From a virus (taxonomy: Duplodnaviria > Heunggongvirae > Uroviricota > Caudoviricetes), in the IMG/VR virus record IMGVR_UViG_3300025011_000017: a stretch of 64,000 bases of DNA. The stretch is one strand, 5' to 3'. Both the position numbers and the translations under genes were made by a program. The stretch's first letter is position 1; every line of letters begins with the position of its first letter. The notes under the pieces are model-generated. The model was not told the DNA's origin. It was given only the letters and a program-made list of their open reading frames with translations, and did not search any database. This document shows positions 13,087-56,854 of the stretch, in pieces.

Positions 13087-14412
13087 ATGGAAAAAATATA
13101 TTCTATTCTTAAAGAGATACAAGAAACATCAAGTAGAAATCAAAAAGAAAAAATATTAAAAAATAATTCTGAAAATCAATTACTTAAAGATATATTAAAA
13201 TTTGTATTTTCTCTTGAAGTAAAAACGGGAATTAAGCGTAAAAAATTAGAAAAAGAAGTTACGTCTGACCAACTAGTTGATATTGAAGGGTTTTATGGAC
13301 TTAGAGAATATATTATTAATAATGGAACTGGATCTGATAAAGTTATTGCCAACATACAGAAATTTTTATCTGAACAAACAGAAGATTTAAAAGATTTATA
13401 CACACGTATTATTCTTCAAGACTTACGATGTAATCTGAGTGAAAAAACTATCAATAGTGCTTTTGGATATGAATTTATATATATCCATAAATTAGAGAAA
13501 GGAGAAGTAGCAGAACCAAAACATCTTAAATTACTTGAAGAAAAAGAATTTGGTATATATAAAAAAATAGATGGATATAGAGCAGAGATTGTAGTAGGAT
13601 ATGACAAGATTAAAATAATGTCATCTGGAGGTGAATTATATAAAGAATTAATTGACATTGAAAGAGCGTTTTTAGATGCTAATTTACCTAAAGGAGTATT
13701 TGCATGTGAATTGTTAGCAATTGATCCTTCGGGACAAATGACACGAATGGAAATATTTAATAAAACTGGATCTATATTACGGAGAGATGGAATAAAAGTT
13801 GGAATTGAAGTTAATGTATTTAATTTTATTCCTGACGATGGATTTTTTAAGGGAGAGCATCCATTTTCTTGTCGTAGAAGAAAGGAATTAGCGAAACAAT
13901 TAGTTGATAAAATTAATTCTCCGTTTGTAAAAAATATTGATCCTCTATATATCGGAAAAGATTTGTCTCAAATTGATTATTGGTTTGAGAAGATGATTTT
14001 AGCTGAAGATGAAGGAATAATGGTTTTACCTCTAGATCAAAGGTATGTTGGGAAAAAATCGTATACACAAATGTTGAAGATTAAAACTGAAAATGAGTGC
14101 GACATTCGCGTAATTGGTTTTGAAAAAGGAGCTAAAGGTAAGGAGTTTGAGAATACTTTAGGAACTTTAATTTGTGACTTTAAGGGAAATCCAATTAGAG
14201 TAATGTGTGGATATAAAATAAAATATAACTCAAATAAATATGATGATCGAATGGTTAGGGATTATATTTGGACTCATCAAGAAGAACTGTTAGATAAAAT
14301 CGTGAAGGTGCGTTATATGGATATCTCCATAAACGACAGTGGTGGAACAGACTTGAGAATGGCAAGACTTATTGAATATCGTGATGATAAATCAGAATCA
14401 TCATATAACTAG
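13087..14412 (+). CDS. lig: ATP-dependent DNA ligase
   Basis: Motif I KKIDGYRAEI (KxDGxR), motif III FACELLAID, motif IV EGIMVLP, motif V MLKIK. Confidence 0.8.
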   Translation: MEKIYSILKEIQETSSRNQKEKILKNNSENQLLKDILKFVFSLEVKTGIKRKKLEKEVTSDQLVDIEGFYGLREYIINNGTGSDKVIANIQKFLSEQTEDLKDLYTRIILQDLRCNLSEKTINSAFGYEFIYIHKLEKGEVAEPKHLKLLEEKEFGIYKKIDGYRAEIVVGYDKIKIMSSGGELYKELIDIERAFLDANLPKGVFACELLAIDPSGQMTRMEIFNKTGSILRRDGIKVGIEVNVFNFIPDDGFFKGEHPFSCRRRKELAKQLVDKINSPFVKNIDPLYIGKDLSQIDYWFEKMILAEDEGIMVLPLDQRYVGKKSYTQMLKIKTENECDIRVIGFEKGAKGKEFENTLGTLICDFKGNPIRVMCGYKIKYNSNKYDDRMVRDYIWTHQEELLDKIVKVRYMDISINDSGGTDLRMARLIEYRDDKSESSYN

Positions 14413-15304: not shown

Positions 15305-15760
15305 ATAATAATTAAAATAGTTGATGGAGATATTTTACAAGCATCGGAAAAACTGGTGGTGCATCAGGTTAACTGTATGGGAGTTATGGGTGGTGGCATC
15401 GCATTACAAATTAGAAATCAGCTTCCTAAAGTTTACAATGAATATAAAAGATTATGTAGTAATACTGATCCAAAACAATTATTAGGAACAATTCAATGCG
15501 TAGAAGATGATTTTGGCAGAGTATTTGTTAATTTATTCGGACAATTAAATTATGGTAGAGATAAACAATATACTGATTATGTGGCTTTAAGAAGAGGTTT
15601 GTTAAATGTTTATAATATAGCAAATCAGTATAATGTGTCAGTTGCAATTCCATTTAATATTGGTTGCGGTCTTGCGGGTGGAGATTGGAATGAAGTTTAT
15701 AAAATGATAGAAGAAATTTTCGGAGATTATGATGTAACTTTATATAGATTGGAAGTATAG
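15305..15760 (+). CDS. Macro domain protein (ADP-ribose binding/hydrolase)
   Basis: VDGDILQASEKLVVHQVNCMGVMGGGIALQI matches macro GDIT...VNAAN...GGGV motifs; conserved N-terminus lies upstream of the first canonical start (GTG 15356); start near 15305-15311 (ATA/ATT) or ATG 15298 with +1 shift in an (AAT)4 run. Confidence 0.6.
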   Translation: MIIKIVDGDILQASEKLVVHQVNCMGVMGGGIALQIRNQLPKVYNEYKRLCSNTDPKQLLGTIQCVEDDFGRVFVNLFGQLNYGRDKQYTDYVALRRGLLNVYNIANQYNVSVAIPFNIGCGLAGGDWNEVYKMIEEIFGDYDVTLYRLEV

Positions 15761-15773
15761 AAAGGAGTAACAA

Positions 15774-15941
15774 GTGGATAATAATGTTATAGGATCGTTA
15801 TATTTAGTTAAAGTTGATTCAAATGAAAATAATAATAAATATTACAAAATGATTCCAAATGGCAATGGTACATTTACAACTCAAAATGGAAGAATTGGAG
15901 TAGATCATTTTCAAACCACTACTTATCCTATTAGCAGATGA
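15774..15941 (+). CDS. WGR-domain N-terminal fragment of PARP-like protein (terminated by in-frame TGA)
   Basis: GTG with AAAGGAG RBS; NKYYKMIPNGNGTFTTQNGRIG (WGR core); remainder of WGR (KLKRKGY) continues in the same frame after TGA 15939-15941. Confidence 0.55.
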   Translation: MDNNVIGSLYLVKVDSNENNNKYYKMIPNGNGTFTTQNGRIGVDHFQTTTYPISR

Positions 15942-15962
15942 AATGAAAAATTAAATGAAAAA

Positions 15963-16988
15963 TTGAAGAGAAAAGGATACACAGACCAAACTAGATTAGT
16001 TGCAGAAATTACATCTTCTTCTAAAAATAAAGAATATTTAGATATTGAAAATTCTTCTATCTCAGCAATTGTCGCAAGATTACAAGCTATGGCTAAACAA
16101 GCTATTGCAGACAACTATACAATATCTTCAAATAAAGTAACTCAGACAATGATAGATGAAGCTCAAATAACATTAAATAATTTAATGACAGCAGATTCAA
16201 TCGAAGCGTTTAACAAAATATTAGTTGAGTTATTTCAAATTATTCCTCGTAAAATGAAAAAAGTAAAAGATAATTTAGCTAAAATAGATAAAGATTTTGG
16301 AGAAATTATTCAAAAAGAACAAGATTTGCTTGATGTGATGAAGGGTCAGGTGGTTATTACATCTGTACAAGATGAAACTGAGCAAGAAATAGTTAATAAT
16401 CAAACTATATTAGACGCTTTAGGATTAAGATTTGAAGAGATTACACAAGAAGAAGAGAGGATGATTAAGAGAGAACTTGAGGATATTAGCAATAGATATT
16501 ATCAAGCATGGAAAGTGATTAATATTAGAACTCAGGAGAGATTTAATAAATTTATTATCAATGAAAAAATTGAAGACAACAGGTTATTATTTCATGGTAC
16601 TCGTTCAGAGAACGTATGGAGTATAATTAACTCTGGATTAGTTTTAAGACCTTCCGCTAAAATTACAGGAAAAATGTTTGGATATGGAATTTATTTTGCT
16701 CCAAAAGCCCAAAAATCATTAGGATATACGTCTATTTCAGGGTCTAGATGGTCTAAAGGAAACGATAAAACTGGATTTATGGCATTATTTGACGTTGCTT
16801 ATGGAAAACCATACGATGTACACTCATTTGATAATAAGTATTATAAGTTTAACTATGAAGAATTGCAAAAAGCTAGTAAGGGTAGTAATTGTTTACATGC
16901 ACACAAAGGCAAGATGTTATTTAATGATGAGATCATAGTATACAAAGAAAATCAAATGACCATAAAGTATTTGATAGAATTAAAATAA
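15963..16988 (+). CDS. PARP-like ADP-ribosyltransferase catalytic region (helical domain + ART; H-Y-E triad present)
   Basis: [39 protein letters not shown] close to PARP1 [48 protein letters not shown] matches the catalytic-Glu motif; same frame as the WGR ORF. Confidence 0.75.
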   Translation: [341 protein letters not shown]

Positions 16989-25338: not shown

Positions 25339-25851
25339 ATGTCAAAAATTGAAGAACTTTTGAATTCTATTGGTATTAATATTAAAGACAATGATAGTAA
25401 AATAAAATCTATGGAAACTATATTGGATGAAATATCTGATAAATATAGTAAATTAAAAAAACGCGTGTTTTTAGGTGGAACCTGTGCTAATAGTTTATGG
25501 AGAGATAAATTAATACCAATGTTAACTATTGATTATTTTAATCCAGTAGTTTCTAATTGGACTCCAGAGTGTCAATTAGAAAAATTAAAGCAAAGAGAAG
25601 AATGTGATTTTGTACTATATGTTTTAACTAGAATTTATAGCACCTTCTCAATCGCAGAAGTAGTGGATGATAGCAATAAACGTCCAGAAAAAACTATCTT
25701 ATGTATAATGAACGAGAAGTTACCTAATGGCAAGTGGGCGTTGGACAGTCAAGAGTTAAAACATTTAGATGCTATAGGTCGTTTAGTTAAAAGAAATGGT
25801 GGATTATATTTTAATTCATTAGAAGAAGTGGCTAATTATTTAAATAAATAA
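25339..25851 (+). CDS. hypothetical protein (tentatively nucleoside 2-deoxyribosyltransferase-like fold)
   Basis: VFLGGT ... DFVLYVL...TFSIAEV loosely fits NDT-like pattern; weak. Confidence 0.3.
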   Translation: MSKIEELLNSIGINIKDNDSKIKSMETILDEISDKYSKLKKRVFLGGTCANSLWRDKLIPMLTIDYFNPVVSNWTPECQLEKLKQREECDFVLYVLTRIYSTFSIAEVVDDSNKRPEKTILCIMNEKLPNGKWALDSQELKHLDAIGRLVKRNGGLYFNSLEEVANYLNK

Positions 25852-25869
25852 TAGAAAGAGGTTATAAAG

Positions 25870-26292
25870 ATGTATATGAAAACTTATGAAATGTTAAAGA
25901 GGCTTGAAGAAAATCCTAAAGCAAGATTTGTATCGAACAAAGAACCAAATAACCCAATATTTATTAATGAAAAAGGTATATTAGTTTGGGGAAAACAAGG
26001 AAATCCTTTTGAAGTAAATATTATAAGTACTTTTTATGCAGGTACATTAGAAGTTTATAAATGGAAAGAAATTAAAGAATCTGTAATTCCTAAATTTGAG
26101 GTAGGAAATGAATTTGTTTGGAAGAGTGCAAATAAATATAAAATAAAAATATTATCTATTGGAGACGAAATTTCTGATGATAATGAAGTAATTTATTTCA
26201 TAAAAATGACAAATGAAAAACAATCTTCTGAGATAACGTTTGATGTTATTTGTGAAGAACTTATTATTAAAAATTATGATTTAGTAAAATAA
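25870..26292 (+). CDS. hypothetical protein
   Basis: RBS AGAAAGAGG; 140 aa. Confidence 0.45.
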   Translation: MYMKTYEMLKRLEENPKARFVSNKEPNNPIFINEKGILVWGKQGNPFEVNIISTFYAGTLEVYKWKEIKESVIPKFEVGNEFVWKSANKYKIKILSIGDEISDDNEVIYFIKMTNEKQSSEITFDVICEELIIKNYDLVK

Positions 26293-26333
26293 AAGTTATG
26301 GCCGAGTTATACCATTATTTATTATTTTATCTA

Positions 26334-26362
26334 TTGACAAGCAGTAAGTAATGGTATATACT
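26334..26362 (+). promoter_or_regulatory. promoter upstream of Prs-like/Nampt-like operon
   Basis: TTGACA 26334-26339; TATACT 26357-26362. Confidence 0.5.
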
Positions 26363-26380
26363 TAATAAAAAGGAGGATAA

Positions 26381-27181
26381 ATGATAAAAATTAATGGCAA
26401 TCATATAGGAGAAGATTGTTACCCTAATAACGAAAGAATATTTAGATTACCCCTTGAGAGGTTTTATCAGGATGAAGATTTTATCATAGAACTTAAATAC
26501 ACAACAGATATTGATCTTTCTATCCTTAATATGTGCAAAAGGTATTTAGAAAATAACTTTTATAATTCAAAAGTAACATTGGTAATGAAATATATTCCAT
26601 ACTCTAGAATGGATAGGAATATTAACGGTTACATGTTTAGTCTTAAATATTTTTGCAAATTCATAAATGAACTATATTTTGATGAGGTAATAGTTTTAGA
26701 TCCTCATTCTAATGTTGCTACAGCATTATTGGATAGATGTGTTGAGATTGATTTAAATCCGTATATTGATAAAATAATGCGAAGATTGCAAATAGACTAT
26801 GTATTATTTCCAGATAATGGTAGTTTAAAAAAGTATACCGAAATACTTACTTTAAGAAAACTCTACTTTTACGGAAATAAGAAACGCAATCTTCAAACTG
26901 GAAAAATACTTTACTATGAACTTATTGATTGTCCAGATCTAAAAGGTAAAAATATTTTAATTATTGATGATTTATGCTCAAAGGGTGGAACGTGTCATCA
27001 TGCTTCGTTGAAACTGAAAGAATTAGGAGTAAATGAGATATACTTGTATTTTTCTCATTGTGAAGATTCAATTTATGATGGTGCGCTATTAAATTCTGGA
27101 TTAATTTCGAAGATATTTACTACCGATAGTATTCTAAGTAACTGGACTAATAGTTTACTTAGTAATATAGAACAAATATAA
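26381..27181 (+). CDS. Prs-family ribose-phosphate pyrophosphokinase-like protein (candidate ADP-ribose pyrophosphokinase of an NARP1-like pair)
   Basis: PRPP-binding loop GKNILIIDDLCSKGGT aligned with Prs GKTAILIDDIIDTAGT; own promoter 26334-26362. Confidence 0.6.
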   Translation: MIKINGNHIGEDCYPNNERIFRLPLERFYQDEDFIIELKYTTDIDLSILNMCKRYLENNFYNSKVTLVMKYIPYSRMDRNINGYMFSLKYFCKFINELYFDEVIVLDPHSNVATALLDRCVEIDLNPYIDKIMRRLQIDYVLFPDNGSLKKYTEILTLRKLYFYGNKKRNLQTGKILYYELIDCPDLKGKNILIIDDLCSKGGTCHHASLKLKELGVNEIYLYFSHCEDSIYDGALLNSGLISKIFTTDSILSNWTNSLLSNIEQI

Positions 27182-27199
27182 AATAAAGGGGATATTAAA

Positions 27200-28912
27200 A
27201 TGAAATGTGATCCGATGTTTTGGGCAGATTTTTACAAAATTAGTCACTATTTGATGGGAGAAAAGGGTACGGAAAAACTTTATTCCACGTTTACACCACG
27301 ACATTCTAGAATAGAGGGAATTAATGAAGTAGTATTTTTTGGACTCCAAGGCTTCATTAAAGATTATATCATAGAGCAGTTTAACGTAGGATTTTTTAAA
27401 GTAAAAAAATCAAAAGTAATAAAAAGATATAAACGTCTTATATCATGTACTTTAGGAGATGGTTGTGCTGACTCTTCCCATATTGAAGCATTACATGATC
27501 TTGGGTATCTTCCTATTAGAATTAAGGCTGTCAAAGAAGGAACTTTGATTCCTATGAGAGTACCTGTATTTACAATTGAAAGTACAGATGAAAATTTTTA
27601 TTGGTTGCCTCTGTTTATGGAAACATTTATAAGTGCAAATATATGGAAAGTAATCACTTCTACAACTATTGTTAAAAAATACAGGGATATTTGTGAAAAA
27701 TGGTCAGAAAAAACATGTGATGATAGGTCGCATATTCAATGGCAATGTCATAATTTTAGTTATCGTGGAATGTCGGGAAATGAAGACGCTACTACTACAG
27801 GAGCAGGACATCTATTATATTTCACGGGTACAGATACGATTCCTTCTATTCTATATTTAGAAGATTATTATGGAACCAATGTAGAAAAAGAGCTTGTAGG
27901 AGCGTCAGTTCTTGCTACTGAGCATAGTATCCAATGTGGATATCAAGATGATATGAGATATTTTAAGAGAATGATTACAGAGGTTGCTCCAAATGGCATA
28001 GTTTCTGTTGTCGCAGATGGATATGATTATTGGAATTTCATTGGTAATATTGTTCCTGCTTTAAAAGAAGATATTATGAATAGAGATGGGAAGGCTGTAA
28101 TTCGTCCTGATTCTGGTTCGCCAATTAAAATCATTTGTGGGACAGTAATTGTTGAAAGTTTAACTAATCAAAATTATTGTGAAACATTAGAAAAATGTAA
28201 GACATGGATGCTAGATGGAATTAAAGAAGAAGTAAGAGTTGAAACTCCTCATGGAGAATATGGCGATTCCGAAGTAACTAGATACTTTAAATTTGACAAT
28301 AAAATATATAAAATCGTTGTTGAATTTGATTGGAATAGATACGATAAACAATATTATTATATGGATGGTAGTCGTGTAATAAGTTGTGATGAAATAGAAT
28401 TAACTATTGAACAAAAAGGTTCGGTAGAAGCATTATGGGATACGTTTGGAGGTACTGTTAATAGTAAGGGATATAAAGTATTAGATAGTCATGTGGGATT
28501 AATATATGGCGATTCAATTACTCCTGAATATGCAGAAGAAATTCTTAAACAACTAGAAGAAAAAGGTTTTGCAAGTTCGAATATTGTTTTTGGAGTGGGG
28601 TCTTATTCATTAGGATACTACACAAGAGATACCTTTGCGTTTGCTATGAAGGCGACTTACACCGTAATTAATGGAGAAGAGAGATTCATATTTAAAGATC
28701 CTAAAACAGATAATGGAATTAAAAAATCTCAAAGAGGTATGGTTGTAGTTCTACAAGATCTTGATACTGGTGAAATTTATTTTAAAGATGGATTAAATGC
28801 TGAAGAAAGAGATAATTATAAAGAATATGATTTACTTGAAGATGTTTTCGTTGACGGAAAAATGGTAAGGGAACAAACTTTGGCAGAAATAAGAGCAATC
28901 GTCTTAAAGTAA
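27200..28912 (+). CDS. nicotinamide phosphoribosyltransferase family protein (Nampt/Namat-like)
   Basis: Collinear with human NAMPT motifs: FWADFYKISHY / LPIRIKAVKEGTLIP / HNFSYRGMSGNEDATTTGAGHLLYFTGTDT / IRPDSGSP. Confidence 0.85.
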   Translation: MKCDPMFWADFYKISHYLMGEKGTEKLYSTFTPRHSRIEGINEVVFFGLQGFIKDYIIEQFNVGFFKVKKSKVIKRYKRLISCTLGDGCADSSHIEALHDLGYLPIRIKAVKEGTLIPMRVPVFTIESTDENFYWLPLFMETFISANIWKVITSTTIVKKYRDICEKWSEKTCDDRSHIQWQCHNFSYRGMSGNEDATTTGAGHLLYFTGTDTIPSILYLEDYYGTNVEKELVGASVLATEHSIQCGYQDDMRYFKRMITEVAPNGIVSVVADGYDYWNFIGNIVPALKEDIMNRDGKAVIRPDSGSPIKIICGTVIVESLTNQNYCETLEKCKTWMLDGIKEEVRVETPHGEYGDSEVTRYFKFDNKIYKIVVEFDWNRYDKQYYYMDGSRVISCDEIELTIEQKGSVEALWDTFGGTVNSKGYKVLDSHVGLIYGDSITPEYAEEILKQLEEKGFASSNIVFGVGSYSLGYYTRDTFAFAMKATYTVINGEERFIFKDPKTDNGIKKSQRGMVVVLQDLDTGEIYFKDGLNAEERDNYKEYDLLEDVFVDGKMVREQTLAEIRAIVLK

Positions 28913-28928
28913 GACAAAAAGTATATAA

Positions 28929-28973
28929 TTGGACTCTAAAAGTTAAAAAATATCTCTTTTAGAGTCCAATTTA
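28929..28973 (+). terminator. rho-independent terminator after Nampt-like gene
   Basis: 14-bp stem TTGGACTCTAAAAG / CTTTTAGAGTCCAA followed by TTTAAT. Confidence 0.6.
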
Positions 28974-28996
28974 ATAATGAAAGGAGTATTCTATAG

Positions 28997-30418
28997 TTGA
29001 ATATAGGTATATTTTATACAGAAAATAATATTAATTATTATCTTTGTACCTGTGGAAATAATTGGTCTATAAGTCAAACAGATTTAGTTGAAGATACTGA
29101 TAGGTTTTGTAATAAATGTGGATGTCATCACTTTAAAAATGTTGCTCCTAATTTTAATGGAGGAAATATTACTTACGAGGCAATTGTTTTAATTGAAAAA
29201 CAAGATTGGGGATTTATCCTTGAAAGAGAAAAGTTTAATTTAAAATACAACAAAAAAATAAATACACTTGTATTTTTAGAGTCTGTTTATTGTTGGAAAT
29301 TAATATATTCTTTTAAAGATGATTTATTTGTTTATTCTAAATCAGATGGTATTCAATATAAAATAAATATTGAATTTTTAAAATTATTCTTTAAAGGATA
29401 TAATGATCAAGATATGCTTATTGATTTAATATCTACTCCTAATAATAAAAAGTTATTTGAGTATGCGATATCTAAATTTGGATATGTTGGAAGGTATTCT
29501 AATAAATTATCTTATGGATTATCGAGATTTGTTAAATATAAAAAGATAGAATTATTTTTTAAATGTGGATATAATATGTATACAATTTATAACTTGATGG
29601 ATAGATATAATTCAAAAGACATTGATTTTAGTAAAAATAAACCAACAGAAATATTAGGAGTTCCTAAATATGCAATACAATATATTAAACCACATAACTT
29701 TTCGCCATATACTTTAGGAGGAATTAGGGAGTTACACAAGAATTTTGGCGGAAATGATTGTAAAATAATATTATCATATTTACGAGAAGAAACTGATTCA
29801 ATGATAAGTTTTCTTGGAAGTTCTAATATAGCTGAATTTATAAATTTGATAAAAAATTGTAATTACAAACCAAAACAATTAATTAGATATTTAACAAGGG
29901 GTATAAAACTCGAACAAGGTATACTTGATCCTATAGATGGCTTAACATTACTTAAAGATTATGTGTCAATGAGTAATAGAATGGGAGTAGAATATAATAA
30001 ATATAGCAAAAGTTTAAAGAAAGATCATGATATTTGCTCTATGAATTATAAAGTAACTGAAGATTCAAGAAAAAAAGAGTATTTTAGGAATGTAATATCT
30101 AGCAATAAATATAAAGAATTAATTTATAATAACAAAGAATACAGTATTATTATTCCACAAGAACCTATAGATATGATTTCCGAAGGAAAGCTACTCTCGC
30201 ATTGTGTGGCAAGTTATGTTGATGATGTGATAAACGGTAAATGCAAGATATTATTTATGAGAAAAACAGATTCCTTAGAAAGCTCCTTGTTAACCATTGA
30301 AATTCGCGAAAATAATATTATCCAAATTAAAGGATTTAGTAATAGAAGTCGTACAGAAGAAGAAGATTTATTTATAAAAAAATGGTCAAAAGAAAAAGAA
30401 TTAGGTATTTCTGCATAA
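28997..30418 (+). CDS. hypothetical protein (473 aa) with C-terminal HCVASY motif
   Basis: TTG after AAAGGAG; Cys/His-rich N-terminus. Confidence 0.5.
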   Translation: MNIGIFYTENNINYYLCTCGNNWSISQTDLVEDTDRFCNKCGCHHFKNVAPNFNGGNITYEAIVLIEKQDWGFILEREKFNLKYNKKINTLVFLESVYCWKLIYSFKDDLFVYSKSDGIQYKINIEFLKLFFKGYNDQDMLIDLISTPNNKKLFEYAISKFGYVGRYSNKLSYGLSRFVKYKKIELFFKCGYNMYTIYNLMDRYNSKDIDFSKNKPTEILGVPKYAIQYIKPHNFSPYTLGGIRELHKNFGGNDCKIILSYLREETDSMISFLGSSNIAEFINLIKNCNYKPKQLIRYLTRGIKLEQGILDPIDGLTLLKDYVSMSNRMGVEYNKYSKSLKKDHDICSMNYKVTEDSRKKEYFRNVISSNKYKELIYNNKEYSIIIPQEPIDMISEGKLLSHCVASYVDDVINGKCKILFMRKTDSLESSLLTIEIRENNIIQIKGFSNRSRTEEEDLFIKKWSKEKELGISA

Positions 30419-30447
30419 TATTAATATAAAATAATGGAGGAATTAAA

Positions 30448-31539
30448 ATGAAATTACAATTAGTAGAATATATCAAAAATAATTCAGACTGGGAAACTAA
30501 ACTAACCCAAAAACCATATTGTCTAACAATTAAACGTAAAGATAACTTGATAATGTTTTGCTATAATCAAATAGAGTCTAATTTTAATCTGCTATTAGTC
30601 AAGCAAAGCAGAGGAATTGTCCTTGAAGATACAACATTTAAACCTGTCTGCGTACCATTCTTTAAATTTTTTAATTTTGGTGAAACGAACGCAAGTGAAA
30701 TTGATTGGAATACTGCTAAAATTAATGAAAAACTCGATGGATCGTTGATCAAGCTATGGTTTTATGAAGACGAATGGAGAGTGTCTACCAACGGCACAAT
30801 TGATGCCAAAGACGCAAATTTATCAAGTGAAGTTAGTGAATATCAGAATTATTATGATCTGTTTTTAGTAGCACTTAGAGGCACAAGTATACAGTTACAT
30901 GAATTAGATCGACAATATACTTTTATGTTTGAATTAATGTCACCTTATAATCGCGTAGTAGTTCCGCATAAAAATATCCAAATACTTCATATTGGAACTC
31001 GATGCAATACAACTCTCGAAGAAGTAAATATTGATATTGGAGTACAGAAACCTAAATCATATAGCTTCAAATCAATAGAAGAGTGTATGGAGGTTGCTAA
31101 AGAATTACCGTTTACGCAAGAAGGATACGTTGTTGTAGACGATGACTGGCGTAGAATTAAAATAAAAAGCCCTGCATACGTGGCAGTTCATCATCTCGCT
31201 AATAACAATATTATCACTAAGAAAAGAATCGTAGATTTAATAAAGTTAAATGAAGACTCTGAGTTTCTTGCTTATTTTCCTGAATATAAAGATGCAGTAG
31301 AAGATATTCGTAAGAAGATTAGTGCTTTTGTATCAGATATGGATTGGTGCATCGAGTGTCAACAAGAAATTAAGAATAAGAAAACTATTAATCGAAAAAA
31401 ATTTGCGGAATTTGCTTTAAGTACAAAATGTAGTCCTGTTTTATTTAGTTGGTTAGATGGGAAAATATCCAATACTCAAGAATGGCTTTATGCACAGACA
31501 AGTGAGAAAATAGTTGAATGGATTGAAGGAGTGAAATAA
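30448..31539 (+). CDS. RNA ligase, Rnl1-like
   Basis: Motif I EKLDGSL, motif IV QEGYVVV, motif V IKIKS. Confidence 0.6.
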   Translation: MKLQLVEYIKNNSDWETKLTQKPYCLTIKRKDNLIMFCYNQIESNFNLLLVKQSRGIVLEDTTFKPVCVPFFKFFNFGETNASEIDWNTAKINEKLDGSLIKLWFYEDEWRVSTNGTIDAKDANLSSEVSEYQNYYDLFLVALRGTSIQLHELDRQYTFMFELMSPYNRVVVPHKNIQILHIGTRCNTTLEEVNIDIGVQKPKSYSFKSIEECMEVAKELPFTQEGYVVVDDDWRRIKIKSPAYVAVHHLANNNIITKKRIVDLIKLNEDSEFLAYFPEYKDAVEDIRKKISAFVSDMDWCIECQQEIKNKKTINRKKFAEFALSTKCSPVLFSWLDGKISNTQEWLYAQTSEKIVEWIEGVK

Positions 31540-31540
31540 A

Positions 31541-32428
31541 ATGGTTAAATTCTATATGATGATTGGATTACCTGCAAGCACAAAGACAACTTATGCGTAC
31601 AAAATTGCTGAAAGAGACAAAGCGTTAGTATATTCATCTGATGACCTGAGAGTTGAACTATACGGAAATATTAACAATCAGTCACATAATGAAGCACTAT
31701 TTATAGAATTATATAAACGTATTCGTGATTCGCTAAAAGCAGGTAAGAATGTGATTCTCGATGCAACAAATATTTCGTACAAGAAAAGAATTTCATTTTT
31801 AGATACCTTAAAGAATATTGAATGTGATAAAATAGCTATATTTATGGCAACACCATACGAGGATTGTTTGAGATTAAATAAATTAAGGGAGAGAGTGGTT
31901 CCTGAATTTATAATAAAACGTATGTATGAAAATTTTAATGTACCTCAACGATTTGAAGGATTTGATTCGATAGAAATTGTATGGAACACTTTTGGTCGTA
32001 CATTTGACGGTTTTGATTTATTCGATGAATTAGATGAAATGGATCAAATTACTCCTTACCACACTCATACAATTGGCATACATTGCAAAGAGTGTTACAG
32101 GATATGTTCAAAGTTATCAGATAATTATGAACTAAGAATTGCTTCCTTGTTTCATGATATATCTAAACCATTCGTTCAACAATGGAATGATGAGAAGAAA
32201 CGTTGCACCTACTATCAGCATCATCTCGTTTCAGCTTACGATGCTATGTTTTACCTTCGCGAAATTAATCAAGATTCTCTCTTAAAGATAGTAAATTATA
32301 TTCAATTCCATATGTTACCATATAATTTAATATCTGATAAATCTAAAGAAAAATTTATCAAACTAGTCGGCAAAGAATTCTTCGACAACTTATTGTTACT
32401 TAATTATGCTGATACAAATGCTCATTAA
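31541..32428 (+). CDS. P-loop kinase - HD phosphohydrolase fusion (polynucleotide kinase/phosphatase-like end-healing enzyme)
   Basis: N-terminal MIGLPASTKTT (deviant Walker A), ILDATN; C-terminal HD motifs H..H, LFHDISKP. Confidence 0.5.
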   Translation: MVKFYMMIGLPASTKTTYAYKIAERDKALVYSSDDLRVELYGNINNQSHNEALFIELYKRIRDSLKAGKNVILDATNISYKKRISFLDTLKNIECDKIAIFMATPYEDCLRLNKLRERVVPEFIIKRMYENFNVPQRFEGFDSIEIVWNTFGRTFDGFDLFDELDEMDQITPYHTHTIGIHCKECYRICSKLSDNYELRIASLFHDISKPFVQQWNDEKKRCTYYQHHLVSAYDAMFYLREINQDSLLKIVNYIQFHMLPYNLISDKSKEKFIKLVGKEFFDNLLLLNYADTNAH

Positions 32429-37497: not shown

Positions 37498-38073
37498 ATG
37501 TCAATTGATTTAGTAAAAGGTCAAAAACTCGACTTAACGAAAGGTACTTCTTTAAAAAATATTAAGGTTGCTCTAGGATGGGATGCTCAAAAACATGTAG
37601 GAAAAGATTTTGATCTAGATGCTTCAGTTTTTTGTTGTAACGAAAAAGGTAAATGTGTAAATGACACTGATTTTATTTTTTATAAAAATTTAAAACATCC
37701 TTCAGGGGCAATTATTCATACAGGTGATGATAAAACAGGTGAAAATGAAGGCGATGATGAGACGATAATTGTTGACTTCTCCAAAATACCAGAAAATATT
37801 AGCAAGCTTGACTTTGTAGTAACTATTTACGATGCGTTAGCACGTAGTCAAAATTTTGGACAAGTAAATAATGCGTATGTTCGTGTATTGGACTCTGATC
37901 AAAATGACAAAGAATTACTTCGTTTTGACCTTGGAGAAGATTTCAGCTTAGAGACAGGAGTTTCAGTTTGTGTAATTTATCGTAAAGATGGAGAATGGAG
38001 ATTTCAAGCTGTTGGATCAGGATATAACAATGGTCTTGAGGGATTTTGTAGGGAACATGGTTTAGATGTTTAA
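37498..38073 (+). CDS. terD: TerD-family stress protein
   Basis: MSIDLVKGQKLDLTKG..., Ca-binding GDDKTGENEGDDETI motifs; promoter 37428-37456. Confidence 0.75.
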   Translation: MSIDLVKGQKLDLTKGTSLKNIKVALGWDAQKHVGKDFDLDASVFCCNEKGKCVNDTDFIFYKNLKHPSGAIIHTGDDKTGENEGDDETIIVDFSKIPENISKLDFVVTIYDALARSQNFGQVNNAYVRVLDSDQNDKELLRFDLGEDFSLETGVSVCVIYRKDGEWRFQAVGSGYNNGLEGFCREHGLDV

Positions 38074-38096
38074 ATAAAAATAAGGGGGAAAATTAA

Positions 38097-38243
38097 ATGG
38101 AAAAGAAAAATAAGGTAAAATTAGTTCATCTTAAAGGTTGTGAAGGTTGTAGTAATAGTTGTCAATTTAAAAGTTTAAATTCAATTGATGGTGGATTAAA
38201 AGAAATATTTTCATGTAATACGGTTAATTTTAAAACATTTTAA
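38097..38243 (+). CDS. 48-aa Cys-containing small protein
   Basis: Strong RBS AAGGGGGAAAATTAAATG; CEGCSNSC. Confidence 0.35.
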   Translation: MEKKNKVKLVHLKGCEGCSNSCQFKSLNSIDGGLKEIFSCNTVNFKTF

Positions 38244-38288
38244 TGTTTAAATTAATTAAAAAAATTACCAAACGAAAGAGGAAAAGAA

Positions 38289-39023
38289 ATGAATGATTTT
38301 TTTACTAATATTTTGCTTAATTTACAGCATTTTAATTTACATGAATTGGGACTAGTAATACAAAGTCCTAAAGATATTTTCCTTATCATGACACTATTTT
38401 TTATGGAAATATTTTTGTCCATAGATAATGCTCTTGTTTTGGCAATTATGGTAAAACATTTGCCTCCAAAAGAGCAAAAGAAAGCATTAAAATATGGAAT
38501 AGTAGGAGCTTATACTTTTAGGCTAATAGCAATTACGTTGGGTCTGTATCTTGTAAAAATTATGTGGATAAAATTATTAGCCGCATTATATTTAGCAAAA
38601 ATAGTATTTGATTTTTTTAGAAATAAAGACGAAAATCAAAATGGTGTTAAGGACGTCATGGAAAAAAGTTTAATTGCAACAATTATTTCAGTTGAACTAG
38701 CAGACATAGCTTTTAGTGTAGATAGTGTCGTAGCCGCATTTGGTATCTCAGATATTCCTTGGGTTATTGCAATTGGCGGTATGGTTGGAATTTTGGCAAT
38801 GCGAGGTATTGCACAATTGTTTGTAAAATTAGTTGCTAAAATTCCTGAGTTAGAAACTACGGCACATGTATTGATTGGTATTATTTCCTTAAAGATGTTT
38901 TTGGGAGTGTTTAGTATTCATCCTCCAGAGTGGTTATTCTTTGCTACATTAATTAGCACATTTGTCGGGACATTCTTCGTACATCAATATCGACAAAAAA
39001 ATATTTCACAAACTGCTAAATAA
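38289..39023 (+). CDS. terC: TerC-family integral membrane protein
   Basis: LSIDNALVLAIMV signature, multiple TM helices. Confidence 0.65.
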   Translation: MNDFFTNILLNLQHFNLHELGLVIQSPKDIFLIMTLFFMEIFLSIDNALVLAIMVKHLPPKEQKKALKYGIVGAYTFRLIAITLGLYLVKIMWIKLLAALYLAKIVFDFFRNKDENQNGVKDVMEKSLIATIISVELADIAFSVDSVVAAFGISDIPWVIAIGGMVGILAMRGIAQLFVKLVAKIPELETTAHVLIGIISLKMFLGVFSIHPPEWLFFATLISTFVGTFFVHQYRQKNISQTAK

Positions 39024-54039: not shown

Positions 54040-54357
54040 TTGGCTGTAAAAAAAGTTAAAAGTGAAAATTTACTCAACAAGAAAAGTACAAAAAAAAAGA
54101 AAATCACTATTACTACTACTATAAAATTAAACAATACTACCGTAAAGAGGAAATCTAAACCAAAGAATGTAAGTCCTTTAATAGAAAACGGTAAATCATA
54201 TTGTCCAATTTGTAAAAAACAAGAATGTACCATGTTGGATTATGGCTTTAGGGATGAGGATGAACATTGGTTTAAATGGTTATGTAAGCCGTGCAATGTA
54301 ACATTTGAAGTAAAAAAGTTTATTAATGATAACTCAGAGTTTATCATAAGGGAATGA
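54040..54357 (+). CDS. Lys-rich protein with C-terminal Cys4 zinc ribbon
   Basis: TTG after AAGAGAGG; CPICKK...CKPCN. Confidence 0.4.
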   Translation: MAVKKVKSENLLNKKSTKKKKITITTTIKLNNTTVKRKSKPKNVSPLIENGKSYCPICKKQECTMLDYGFRDEDEHWFKWLCKPCNVTFEVKKFINDNSEFIIRE

Positions 54358-54896
54358 TGATAAGTATTAAAAAGGTTTTAATTTATGGTGCAGAATGTAC
54401 AGGGAAATCAACTTTAGCCGAACAATTGGCTAAACATTTTAAGACAGTTTTTATTCCAGATCCTAGAAGGCTATATATTAAAAAAAATGATTATTGTTTT
54501 ATATATAATGATTTAAAAAAAATTGCTCAAATTCATGTAAAAACACAGCAAAAAGCTGAAAAAAAAGCAAATAAAATATATTTTATTGATACTGATGCAA
54601 TTACTTTATCGATTTATAGCGAATCTTATTTTCAAAATATTGATCCTGAATTCGAAAAAATTATCAATAAACAAAATTATGATCTAATACTTTTTACTCA
54701 TTCTAATATACCTTGGGTAGAAGACCATATGAGAGATTATGGAGACGCAAATAAACGTAAAGAACTTCATAAAACATTTAAAGATGAGTTGAAAAAAAGA
54801 GGGTTAAAGTATGTTGACATAAAAAGTAAATTTTGGGATAAAAGATTAGATACTGCTATAAATGCAGTAAATAAACTTTTATTAGAGGGTGATTAA
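54354..54896 (+). CDS. AAA_28/NadR-type kinase-like P-loop protein (possible nicotinamide riboside kinase)
   Basis: IYGAECTGKSTLAEQLAKHF...IYFIDTDAITL parallels NadR RNK domain GGESSGKS...IAFIDTD. Confidence 0.45.
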   Translation: MMISIKKVLIYGAECTGKSTLAEQLAKHFKTVFIPDPRRLYIKKNDYCFIYNDLKKIAQIHVKTQQKAEKKANKIYFIDTDAITLSIYSESYFQNIDPEFEKIINKQNYDLILFTHSNIPWVEDHMRDYGDANKRKELHKTFKDELKKRGLKYVDIKSKFWDKRLDTAINAVNKLLLEGD

Positions 54897-55444
54897 TGAT
54901 ATTGAGATTGGGTGTAATTGGCTCTAGGAGTTTCAATGATTATAAGTTGTTATGTAATACGCTTCAAGAATATAAGCATTATAAACTTGAAATTGTAAGT
55001 GGTGGAGCAAAGGGAGCAGATAGTTTAGCCAAGCGATATGCTGAAGAAAATCTGCTTCCATATAAAGAATTTTTACCAGATTGGGATTCATTTGGAAAAC
55101 AAGCGGGGTTTATTAGAAATGCAGACATTATAGCTAATAGTGATGAAGTGGTGGCCTTTTGGGATAAAAAAAGTAGTGGAACCGCAAATAGTATTCATCT
55201 TGCAGGTAAAAAAGGAATACCAGTTAAAATTATTCATTTTGAAGAAGAAAAGCTTATTAAATCAAATAAAGAATTATTCAATGCATGGAAAAATTTAGCC
55301 GAAACAATAGGCTGGATAGGTGGAATAGTTCAAAATGACTATTTGGCCTCAAAGGAAGATGTTTTAGGATGGATTCAATTAGTTAATAACTCGTTTGCTA
55401 AATTCAAAGAATTAGCTTCAAAAACTAGAGAATATATAAAATAA
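54896..55444 (+). CDS. DUF2493/YspA-type SLOG-family Rossmann protein
   Basis: GVIGSRSF...IVSGGAKGADSLAKRYA matches GsR...GGArGAD signature. Confidence 0.5.
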   Translation: MILRLGVIGSRSFNDYKLLCNTLQEYKHYKLEIVSGGAKGADSLAKRYAEENLLPYKEFLPDWDSFGKQAGFIRNADIIANSDEVVAFWDKKSSGTANSIHLAGKKGIPVKIIHFEEEKLIKSNKELFNAWKNLAETIGWIGGIVQNDYLASKEDVLGWIQLVNNSFAKFKELASKTREYIK

Positions 55445-55718: not shown

Positions 55719-55941
55719 AGACATGATAACTTTAATAGCTCTTTTGACTCTGGCAGATGATATGGGGTTTGATGATAATAAAGCAAATGAAATTATAGGA
55801 AAAGATAGAATAGATAAAATTGATAATTTGTTTTCTAAAATATTTAATGATTCAAATAGTGAATATGATGAATATATATTAAATTTATCATTTAATATGA
55901 TTAAAGATATTATTGATAAGATTGATACTGATAATAAATAA
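55705..55941 (+). CDS. hypothetical protein
   Basis: RBS AAGGAGG; 78 aa. Confidence 0.4.
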   Translation: MKISKDMITLIALLTLADDMGFDDNKANEIIGKDRIDKIDNLFSKIFNDSNSEYDEYILNLSFNMIKDIIDKIDTDNK

Positions 55942-55954
55942 GGAGAATAATAAA

Positions 55955-56854
55955 ATGGAACAAAAGAAATATACTGATGTTATACGTCTTGGTCACAAAA
56001 CAACAGTAGGAGTATTAACAAAAGGCGACAATATAATAATTCAAGAGAAGATTGACGGTTCGAATGCAGGATTCAGAAGAGTTGGCGATAAACTTATCGC
56101 TTACTCTCGTAACAATGAATTACACGAAGGATTGACTCTTAATGGGTTTTATCAATTTGTTCAATCTCTAAATCCACAAATTTTTGTAGAAGGTTATATT
56201 TATTTTGGAGAATGGCTTCGTGCAAAACACAAAATAGATTATTCAAAACGAACAGCAGATTTTTATATGTTTGATTTATACGATGTGGATAATGAATGTT
56301 ATTGTGATTATACAGATGCTAAATTTGTGGCTGAATTAATTGGATTAACCTTTGTACCCATTTTTTATGAAGGAGAATACATTGATTTTGAACATCTTAT
56401 GTCTTTTGTAGGTAAATCAGATATTGCAGAACATGGTGAAGGAATTGTAGTTAAAAATACAAATTATCGTAATCAATATGGTAATCAAATTTATGTTAAA
56501 TTAGTTACAGAAGAATTTGCAGAAACACAGAAACAAAAACTTCCAAAAGATCCTACTGGATATGGTTTAAATAAATTTGTGGCAGAATTTCTAACTCCTG
56601 CAAGAGTAGAAAAATTTATGTACAAATTAGTAGATGAACAATTTATTCCTGAAGATTATGGAATTGAACTTATGGGAACTATCCTAAAAGAACTTGGATC
56701 AAGAATATATGATGATCTTCTTAAAGAAGAGTCTGATAATCTTTCAGAAGAAGATTCTGATGAAAAAGATATTAAAAAGTCTATTGGAAAAGTTTTACCT
56801 TTACTTGTTAAATCAATTGTGTTAGAAAATCAAAAGAATTATCAACAAGTATAA
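55955..56854 (+). CDS. Rnl2-like RNA ligase family nucleotidyltransferase
   Basis: Motif I EKIDGSNAGF, III YIYFGEWL, IV HGEGIVVKN, V YVKLV; ATG 55955 after ATAAGGAG (track 55913). Confidence 0.55.
   Translation: MEQKKYTDVIRLGHKTTVGVLTKGDNIIIQEKIDGSNAGFRRVGDKLIAYSRNNELHEGLTLNGFYQFVQSLNPQIFVEGYIYFGEWLRAKHKIDYSKRTADFYMFDLYDVDNECYCDYTDAKFVAELIGLTFVPIFYEGEYIDFEHLMSFVGKSDIAEHGEGIVVKNTNYRNQYGNQIYVKLVTEEFAETQKQKLPKDPTGYGLNKFVAEFLTPARVEKFMYKLVDEQFIPEDYGIELMGTILKELGSRIYDDLLKEESDNLSEEDSDEKDIKKSIGKVLPLLVKSIVLENQKNYQQV

Follow-up and report, generated by a model that had tools for sequence, protein, structure and literature searches.

Analysis of a 64,000-nucleotide (nt) stretch of virus DNA, record IMGVR_UViG_3300025011_000017, revealed two adjacent genes that very probably form a nicotinamide adenine dinucleotide (NAD+) reconstitution pathway 1 (NARP1) operon. 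We refer to the whole of this stretch as the window, and all positions below are positions in it. The first gene encodes a 266-aa protein related to ribose-phosphate pyrophosphokinases (Prs) and the second a 570-aa protein related to nicotinamide phosphoribosyltransferases (Nampt). Acting as the enzymes Adps and Namat, respectively, these proteins would rebuild NAD+ from ADP-ribose (ADPR) and nicotinamide. An initial annotation of this DNA had preferred the same pathway to its alternative, a genuine Prs working with a NadV/NatV-type salvage route. Our data favor the NARP1 side as well, because the first protein clusters with Adps proteins, the second has the clamp residues of Namat, falls in the Namat clade and matches the Namat structure 9w5x, and no NMNAT gene was found over ~77 kb. 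Gene structure, membership of families and clades, conservation of residues, operon synteny and the lack of a nearby NMNAT gene were all observed directly. The pair of open reading frames (ORFs) lies where that annotation had placed a 266-aa and a 570-aa gene, on one strand with 18 bp between them, and a good Shine-Dalgarno sequence precedes each (AAGGAGG at 26370-26376 for adps and AAAGGGGA at 27185-27192 for namat).

26381-27181, + strand: adps, predicted ADP-ribose pyrophosphate synthetase (Prs-like), 266 aa
27200-28912, + strand: namat, predicted nicotinamide ADP-ribose transferase (Nampt-like), 570 aa

Several lines of evidence place the 266-aa protein in the Adps branch of the Prs family and not among the cellular Prs. 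Pfam returned just a sub-threshold match to Pribosyltran. In NCBIfam, 13 families were matched, including 11 Prs models, each with a score under its cut-off (the best was TIGR01251, with 82 bits against 113). The score to the phage family phrog_619 was 221 bits. For comparison with a characterized system we used the NARP1 of Bacillus phage SPbetaL1 (Adps WIT26982.1 and Namat WIT26983.1; Namat structures 9w5x and 9w5w). The Adps of this phage forms ADPR-pyrophosphate (ADPR-PP) from ADPR and ATP in vitro, and a Prs-type control reaction with it gave no measurable product (bioRxiv 10.1101/2024.02.11.579819). The window protein is 37% identical to SPbetaL1 Adps (146 bits) and scored 157 bits to the Adps of phage Tsamsa, 100 to a Felixounavirus Adps and 79 to the Adps of phage ICP1. 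Scores to five bacterial Prs (from E. coli and four actinobacteria) were 31-62 bits at 21-23% identity, and the best solved Prs structure was archaeal, at 63 bits.

To separate the two groups by profile, a hidden Markov model (HMM) of Adps was built from homologues encoded next to Namat genes, from which the window protein was excluded along with the two relatives nearest to it; the 266-aa protein scored 219 bits on it versus 40 bits on a Prs HMM. Phylogenetic placement against Prs and Adps, which the initial annotation had proposed, put the protein in the Adps clade. In a neighbor-joining (NJ) tree of 84 sequences, calculated from capped, symmetric distances, the Namat-linked proteins together with the 266-aa protein split from the five Prs outgroups in 100 of 100 bootstraps, and the clade holding it and SPbetaL1 Adps was free of Prs just as often (100/100).

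The residues of the 266-aa protein are in keeping with this placement. Structures and mutagenesis of ICP1 Adps mark R87, H121, D161, K185, D212 and D213 as functional (PMC13586617), and these align with R76, H109, D145, K167, D196 and D197 of the window protein. Apart from the Lys, they are acceptor and phosphate residues. Lys167, which lies in the catalytic hairpin, also aligns with K162 of SPbetaL1 Adps, where mutation showed it to be essential, and every catalytic and ADPR- or ATP-contacting residue common to the validated Adps proteins is kept. The PRPP-loop motif (PRPP, phosphoribosyl pyrophosphate) claimed earlier was located, as GKNILIIDDLCSKGGT, at residues 189-204. Missing, as in other Adps proteins, is the C-terminal alpha11-alpha12 regulatory and filament module of Prs: the protein has 266 aa versus 315 aa in E. 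coli Prs, and the alignment ends ~14 residues past TTDSIL. Conservation of ribose-5-phosphate residues had been named in the initial annotation as a sign of a bona fide Prs, which is non-discriminating because in Adps the same residues are retained and serve for ADPR (PMC13586617). Two sites in adps are central to the predicted chemistry:

26879-26881, + strand: codon of the putative catalytic Lys167, from alignment to SPbetaL1 K162 and ICP1 K185
26966-26992, + strand: PP loop DDLCSKGGT, from its motif

The second protein is, by its sequence, a Namat and not a Nampt. It matches the Pfam families NAPRTase and NAMPT_N and passes NCBIfam NF006629 (520 bits, cut-off 405); NCBI-style models would label its gene "nicotinate phosphoribosyltransferase". 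Identity to SPbetaL1 Namat is 54% and extends across both halves of the protein. Sequence scores against the PDB were 555 bits for SPbetaL1 Namat (9w5x/9w5w), 421 for H. ducreyi NadV, 218 for the Nampt of Xanthomonas (Xcc) and 192 for human NAMPT. An AlphaFold2 model with a mean predicted local distance difference test (pLDDT) score of 94.8 gave its best Foldseek superposition on 9w5x, with a template modeling (TM) score of 0.96 (target-normalized). The collinearity with Nampt across all major motifs that had been reported earlier was borne out by these family matches and by an intact catalytic core, in which D10, Y12, F186, R189, D212, H242, R302 and D304 correspond to D13, Y15, F189, R192, D215, the catalytic His, R306 and D308 of SPbetaL1 Namat.

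A selectivity clamp in Namat reads the adenine of ADPR-PP (PMC12774641). Its two parts were located in the 570-aa protein as follows:

27308-27310, + strand: codon of Arg37, putative stacking residue of the Arg/Lys/Tyr type in the selectivity-clamp loop (SCL), aligned with R40 of SPbetaL1 Namat (role from PMC12774641)
28598-28630, + strand: selectivity-clamp helix (SCH) motif GSYSLGYYTRD, residues 467-477, with Y469 and Y473 at the predicted adenine-stacking positions

The full set of clamp residues is R37, Y469, Y473, T475, R476 and D477. At the equivalent of the SCH motif a KVP40-like Nampt has GGGLLQQLDRD, Xcc Nampt has GGALLQKVDRD and H. ducreyi NadV has GAQTYQRNTRD, so that positions 3 and 7 are G/Q and Q/K/R in the Nampts versus Tyr and Tyr in the window protein. 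Among the best 80 relatives in IMG/VR, the motif was of the Namat type in every one from which it could be extracted (76/76). We also considered motif length as a means of telling Namat from Nampt and rejected it, as motifs of 11 residues are found in Nampts of bacteria and phages too. Placement against Nampt and Namat, likewise proposed in the initial annotation, put the 570-aa protein in the Adps-associated Namat clade: in an NJ tree it fell, with its two closest relatives from loci L009 and L017 (Namats 75% and 70% identical), inside the clade that holds SPbetaL1 Namat and Tsamsa. Four Nampts, those of RSP15, phiM7, a KVP40-like phage and a T4-like phage of Klebsiella, lay outside this clade on a long branch. 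These represent the NARP2 type, in which a Nampt works with an NMNAT, and the Nampt genes of RSP15 and phiM7 each adjoin an NMNAT gene.

Operon synteny was surveyed in the best 80 IMG/VR loci with Namat relatives. An Adps homologue was present in the flank of 76 of these loci, mostly directly upstream and on the same strand, and one of the four loci lacking it is cut at a contig end. In one metagenomic relative (P0145) Adps and Namat are fused in a single ORF. Tsamsa and Kirov, whose proteins are the closest cultured homologues, are listed as Adps-associated in the supplementary tables of Osterman et al.

The search for NMNAT covered ~77 kb, that is, the window together with 3 kb upstream and 9.7 kb downstream. 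Pfam matches of the genes in this region included no NMNAT (PF01467/CTP_transf_like), NadR or PnuC, and neither tblastn nor an HMM search from the NMNATs of RSP15 and phiM7 produced anything there better than E 0.46. The absence of NMNAT from the window, as first noted, thus stood up to Pfam, tblastn and HMM searches; the wider genome search that had been suggested was negative over these ~77 kb, which is partial coverage. A kinase-like AAA_28 protein (180 aa, 54354-54896, 114 bits) was observed in the same region and has only the kinase-like domain and no NMNAT domain. Its gene overlaps by one base a gene for a YAcAr/DprA-like SLOG-domain protein (the two span 54354-55444). The AAA_28 family includes the ribosylnicotinamide kinase domain of NadR, and these two genes may be another nucleotide- or NAD-related pair.

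These results bear on a classical salvage explanation of the operon, in which a true PRPP synthetase and a Nampt/NadV would make nicotinamide mononucleotide (NMN), and either a phage NMNAT, as in NARP2, or host NadD/NadR would convert the NMN to NAD+. Both proteins do match Prs and Nampt family models, the 570-aa protein with a score well past the NF006629 cut-off, and PRPP can be turned into NMN by Namats in vitro (PMC12774641); in addition, ~24-106 kb of the genome lie beyond the region searched for NMNAT. However, the 266-aa protein is far under the cut-offs of all Prs models and groups with Adps in every bootstrap, the 570-aa protein has an adenine clamp that the KVP40-like, Xcc and H. ducreyi enzymes do not, and the ~77 kb hold no NMNAT. 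Moreover, no phage combined NARP1 with NARP2 in the study of Osterman et al., in which 97% of Adps-clade genes had a Namat homologue beside them. We therefore regard classical salvage as highly improbable.

Some observations weigh against the NARP1 assignment. Our trees were quick NJ trees with few outgroups, and an earlier run with saturated distances gave 51/100 and was discarded as invalid. ICP1 Adps contacts adenine through F18, F92 and D216, which the 266-aa protein does not keep and the validated SPbetaL1 Adps does not either; for that reason these residues were rejected as a diagnostic of Adps. As they vary even in SPbetaL1 Adps, no sequence signature proves ADPR specificity, and for the window protein this specificity is suggested by clade membership and synteny. 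At non-stacking positions the SCH motif differs from the consensus, having Leu and not an aromatic residue at position 5 and Gly at position 6. The substrate preferences that we infer are drawn from homologues at 37% (Adps) and 54% (Namat) identity. Since Namat enzymes retain Nampt activity in vitro, producing NMN from PRPP (PMC12774641), some NMN synthesis by the 570-aa protein is conceivable. Finally, the ~77 kb covered in the search for NMNAT compare with 101-183 kb for the contigs that carry this phage.

On the NARP1 reading, the pathway would begin with the cleavage of NAD+ to ADPR and nicotinamide by host NADases of the SIR2, TIR or SEFIR type. Adps, using Lys167 of the catalytic hairpin and the DDLCSKGGT loop, would move the beta,gamma-pyrophosphate of ATP onto the 1'' hydroxyl of ADPR's terminal ribose, giving ADPR-PP. 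Namat, presumably a dimer of the Nampt fold, would then let nicotinamide displace the pyrophosphate of ADPR-PP to form NAD+ directly, with neither NMN nor NMNAT being involved. Arg37, Tyr469 and Tyr473 are predicted to clamp the adenine of ADPR-PP, which would be the source of the preference for this substrate over PRPP. In this manner the phage would keep NAD+ available in hosts with NAD+-depleting abortive-infection systems. Both the enzymatic activities and the anti-defense phenotype are likely by analogy with the homologues from SPbetaL1, Bas63 (a Felixounavirus), Fado, ICP1 and P. foliorum. Resistance of the phage to NAD+-depleting defenses of the SIR2, TIR and SEFIR types is thus a prediction of our analysis.

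Two candidate regulatory sites flank the operon:

26334-26362, + strand: sigma-70-type promoter-like site TTGACA-17-TATACT, matching at 11/12 positions, in the 88-bp gap 5' of adps
28927-28971, + strand: hairpin with a 16-bp perfect stem, probable transcription terminator or RNA-stabilizing operon end

The operon had been credited with a promoter of its own, and the site is indeed present and is the top-scoring promoter-like site within 25500-29800. Less favorable is that such sites as a class are not enriched in that interval (29 found versus 30.2 expected from shuffled sequence). From the end of the -10 hexamer to the adps Shine-Dalgarno there are 7 nt, implying a leader of only ~11-13 nt. 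As this leader would be very short, transcription by read-through from upstream, together with a gene two positions upstream that is described below, is also possible, instead of or besides initiation at this site. The terminator, given earlier as 28929-28973, corresponds to a stable hairpin that by direct folding has a dG of -20.6 kcal/mol and a z score of -6.2, with 0/200 shuffles as good. The hairpin begins 14 bases past the namat stop. A consensus terminator scan did not call it, because its loop is 13 nt and the T tract after the stem is just TTT. An intrinsic terminator of a non-canonical kind is plausible.

Namat in the window is enlarged by an insertion:

28148-28417, + strand: variable insertion module of ~81 aa, residues ~317-406, between the RPDSG strand and the C-terminal half, from alignment to SPbetaL1 Namat

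The initial annotation had noted an insertion absent from human NAMPT. Its existence and its absence from Nampts hold; its size and position required correction from ~60 aa at ~28200-28400. SPbetaL1 Namat also lacks it. In the AlphaFold2 model the module (pLDDT 81-95) is predicted to be compact, with a short strand (318-320), one long helix (330-348) and three long antiparallel strands (358-365, 368-379 and 387-399). A clearly homologous insertion (TPHGEYG..., RYDKQYY) was observed in the Namats of Tsamsa-like Bacillus phages, and those of Felixounavirus and other phages carry insertions at the same site, where relatives have from ~0 to ~90 extra residues. The insertion is therefore, on sequence comparison, a common feature of Adps-associated Namat homologues and not a novelty. 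It is polymorphic: some relatives with 76-81% identity in the flanks are entirely without it. Close relatives thus do without the module, which speaks against a need for it in catalysis. We considered whether it might be an intein and rejected this, there being no Cys/Ser...His-Asn junctions. True inteins with homing-endonuclease-like inserts were seen in close Namat relatives at other sites, at RPD|S (P0127, with 91% flanking identity, and P0197) and at A|TEHS (P0138).

Genes elsewhere in the window raise the question of whether the core pair acts with additional enzymes. Two candidates were noted:

15356-15760, + strand: Macro-domain protein (PF01661, 33.5 bits; phrog_335 "phosphatase", 144 bits), possible unlinked accessory (Adpp-like)
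25339-25851, + strand: nucleoside 2-deoxyribosyltransferase (NDT)-like protein (PF15891), possible accessory, two genes upstream of adps

The Macro gene lies 10.6 kb upstream of the operon and directly before a WGR-like ORF (~15774-15941) and a gene with a PARP domain (15963-16988; PF00644, 86 bits). It is the sole Macro gene, and none is present within two genes of adps or namat. The row of Macro, WGR and PARP genes (15356-16988) comes just after a gene for an ATP-dependent DNA ligase (13087-14412). Proteins of the Adpp-type Macro family convert ADPR-1''-phosphate made by aRES to ADPR (bioRxiv 10.64898/2026.01.28.702374), and the window protein scored 129 bits on an HMM of Macro genes found inside or beside NARP1 operons of other loci. 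The Macro gene could serve the PARP module instead of NARP1.

This arrangement suggests another explanation that retains the chemistry proposed above and changes its purpose. The main task of the operon would be to recycle ADPR and nicotinamide from an ADP-ribosylation cycle of the phage itself, with the PARP as writer and the Macro protein as eraser. The phage does encode a PARP catalytic domain, a WGR-like ORF and a Macro protein, and one related locus, L014, has a PARP homologue (476 bits) 6 kb downstream of Namat. In only one of the 80 loci surveyed, though, does a PARP accompany NARP1, and in the window the PARP module belongs to another gene block, at a distance of 10 kb. The Macro family, moreover, is the one embedded in NARP1 operons and would suit an Adpp role just as well, and NARP1 alone has been found experimentally to suffice for anti-defense in phages without PARP (bioRxiv 10.1101/2024.02.11.579819). 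Recycling from such a cycle as the main purpose is in our view improbable, and we judge it similarly improbable that NAD+ is kept up for ADP-ribosylation rather than, or besides, for countering host NADases.

The NDT-like protein was modeled with a pLDDT of 90.3; its top structural matches were enzymes of the NDT family followed by TIR domains, and a PDB search by sequence gave only noise. Glu107 does not vary among 117 homologues. The operon's two closest relatives have the NDT-like gene between adps and namat (L009, 7499-7999; L017, 7160-7585). Of 81 loci, 16 have a PF15891 gene no more than 3.5 kb from Namat, and in six of these it is inside the operon. An obligate link between the NDT-like family and NARP1 was rejected, as close homologues in three Brevibacillus and Clostridium prophages are surrounded by genes of nucleotide metabolism and have no NARP1 in the vicinity. 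A 140-aa ORF (25870-26292) with no Pfam or PHROG match separates the NDT-like gene from the adps promoter site.

Both candidates could be part of an extended, dispersed form of NARP1. In it an unlinked Adpp-like Macro protein would turn ADPR-1''-phosphate into ADPR, countering aRES, and perhaps an NDT-like glycosidase would act as well, so that the core pair could draw on a wider range of NAD+ breakdown products. The Adpp function is published (bioRxiv 10.64898/2026.01.28.702374), and both the Macro scores and the position of NDT-like genes in L009, L017 and other loci agree with such a role. The distance of 10.6 kb, on the other hand, puts the Macro gene outside the published definition of NARP1-AP, the Adpp-containing form (within two genes), and beside a PARP; the NDT-like family has no substrate on record and has the close prophage homologues mentioned above. 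A dispersed system of this kind is possible but doubtful.

A third family was observed in related loci only and is absent from the window. It is a HAD-type, phosphatase-like protein of ~140 aa with DxDxT, T, K and DD motifs and matches to PDB 2obb and 1xpj, which was present in 16 of 81 NARP1 neighborhoods and between adps and namat in nine (e.g., L017 7589-8011, L014 7496-7924, L013 1723-2127 and L008 7057-7455, the last being Tsamsa gp194). PHROG mis-names it "phosphoheptose isomerase" (phrog_1238). The 140-aa ORF upstream of adps was examined as a homologue of this HAD-like cluster (cluster A), which has a gene at the matching position in L017, and was rejected (hhalign probability 0.5%). 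We hypothesize that NARP1 operons recurrently carry enzymes that widen their input, beyond the Adpp Macro protein and the RyR glycosidase (RyDEP), and that the PF15891 NDT-like and HAD-type proteins are such enzymes, although this is rather unlikely. The NDT-like enzyme might break a glycosidic bond within an ADPR-derived product or an immune signal (e.g., an N-linked cyclic ADPR) to yield linear ADPR for Adps, and the HAD enzyme might be a non-homologous analogue of Adpp. In the library of papers searched we found none that ties the NDT-like or the HAD-type family to NARP1.

The immediate neighbors of the operon are the NDT-like gene and the 140-aa ORF on one side and genes for PcfJ and an RNA ligase on the other. 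Directly downstream (28997-32428) are a PcfJ-like protein (473 aa), a T4 Rnl1-type RNA ligase (363 aa) and a protein with kinase (AAA_33/KTI12) and HD domains (295 aa), and the region therefore looks like a counter-defense and auxiliary block. The RNA ligase and the kinase/HD protein resemble a tRNA-repair module; a tRNA scan found no tRNA, and a second RNA ligase (PF09414) is encoded at ~55913-56854. Further along, at 37498-39023, are genes of tellurite-resistance families, TerD-like (191 aa) and TerC/DUF475-like (244 aa).

The gene content of the window is that of a large SPbeta-like phage, including YorF, YorH, YopX, a Pol III alpha-type polymerase, RNR, ThyX, dUTPase, DnaB, RecJ, an amidase and a 1945-aa protein. 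Its genes are all on one strand and its GC content is ~29%. A megablast search of the locus against 50,697 phage records gave no match, so the phage has no close cultured relative. Identical copies of its proteins are encoded on groundwater metagenome contigs of 101-183 kb.

NARP1 occurs in ~4% of sequenced phages and 859 operons have already been catalogued. The operon described here is thus an ordinary further example, in an uncultured low-GC SPbeta-like phage from groundwater. It does illustrate that published rules (the Adps clade, the catalytic Lys and the Namat clamp) can tell NARP1 from Prs plus Nampt annotations in raw metagenomic sequence. The by-products are perhaps more useful, namely the NDT-like and HAD-like families in NARP1 operons, the variable insertion and intein sites in Namat, and the Macro gene beside a PARP gene.

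Comparison with known systems places the pair closest to the NARP1 operons of phages. Cellular Prs, such as that of E. coli, has the fold and catalytic core in common with the 266-aa protein and differs in its low identity (21-23%) and in its C-terminal regulatory helices, and bacterial NadV (H. ducreyi, 9ke8) likewise has the fold and catalytic core of the 570-aa protein and differs in having Gln and Arg at the two adenine-stacking positions. NARP3, which consists of a PnuC-like transporter and a NadR-like bifunctional enzyme, has no counterpart among the Pfam matches over the region read. NARP2 (Nampt/NadV with NMNAT/NatV, as in Vibrio phage KVP40, Ralstonia phage RSP15 and Sinorhizobium phage phiM7) is alike in its Nampt fold and in NAD+ as end product. 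It is unlike the window pair in that no NMNAT was found over ~77 kb, the 570-aa protein, which has the adenine clamp, does not fall in the NARP2-type clade, and its partner is Prs-like. With NARP1-AP (Adps-Adpp-Namat, Vibrio phage Gary) the window phage shares a Macro protein of the operon-embedded family, although its gene is 10.6 kb upstream beside WGR and PARP genes and so outside the published definition. The NARP1 operons of Tsamsa, Kirov and Felixounavirus (tootiki) are more similar, with adjacent Adps and Namat genes and Namats of ~570-593 aa that have an insertion at the same site; their hosts and phage lineages are other ones, and Namat identity is 50-51% (Tsamsa and Kirov) and 40% (Felix-like). 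Compared with SPbetaL1 NARP1, the window Namat has its ~81-aa insertion and GSYSLGYYTRD in place of GSFTYQYNTRD in the SCH. The two systems nevertheless have the same gene order and tight spacing in an SPbeta-type phage background, and they share the catalytic Lys and DDL[SC]S.GGT loop of Adps and the clamp Arg, aromatic stackers and catalytic core of Namat.

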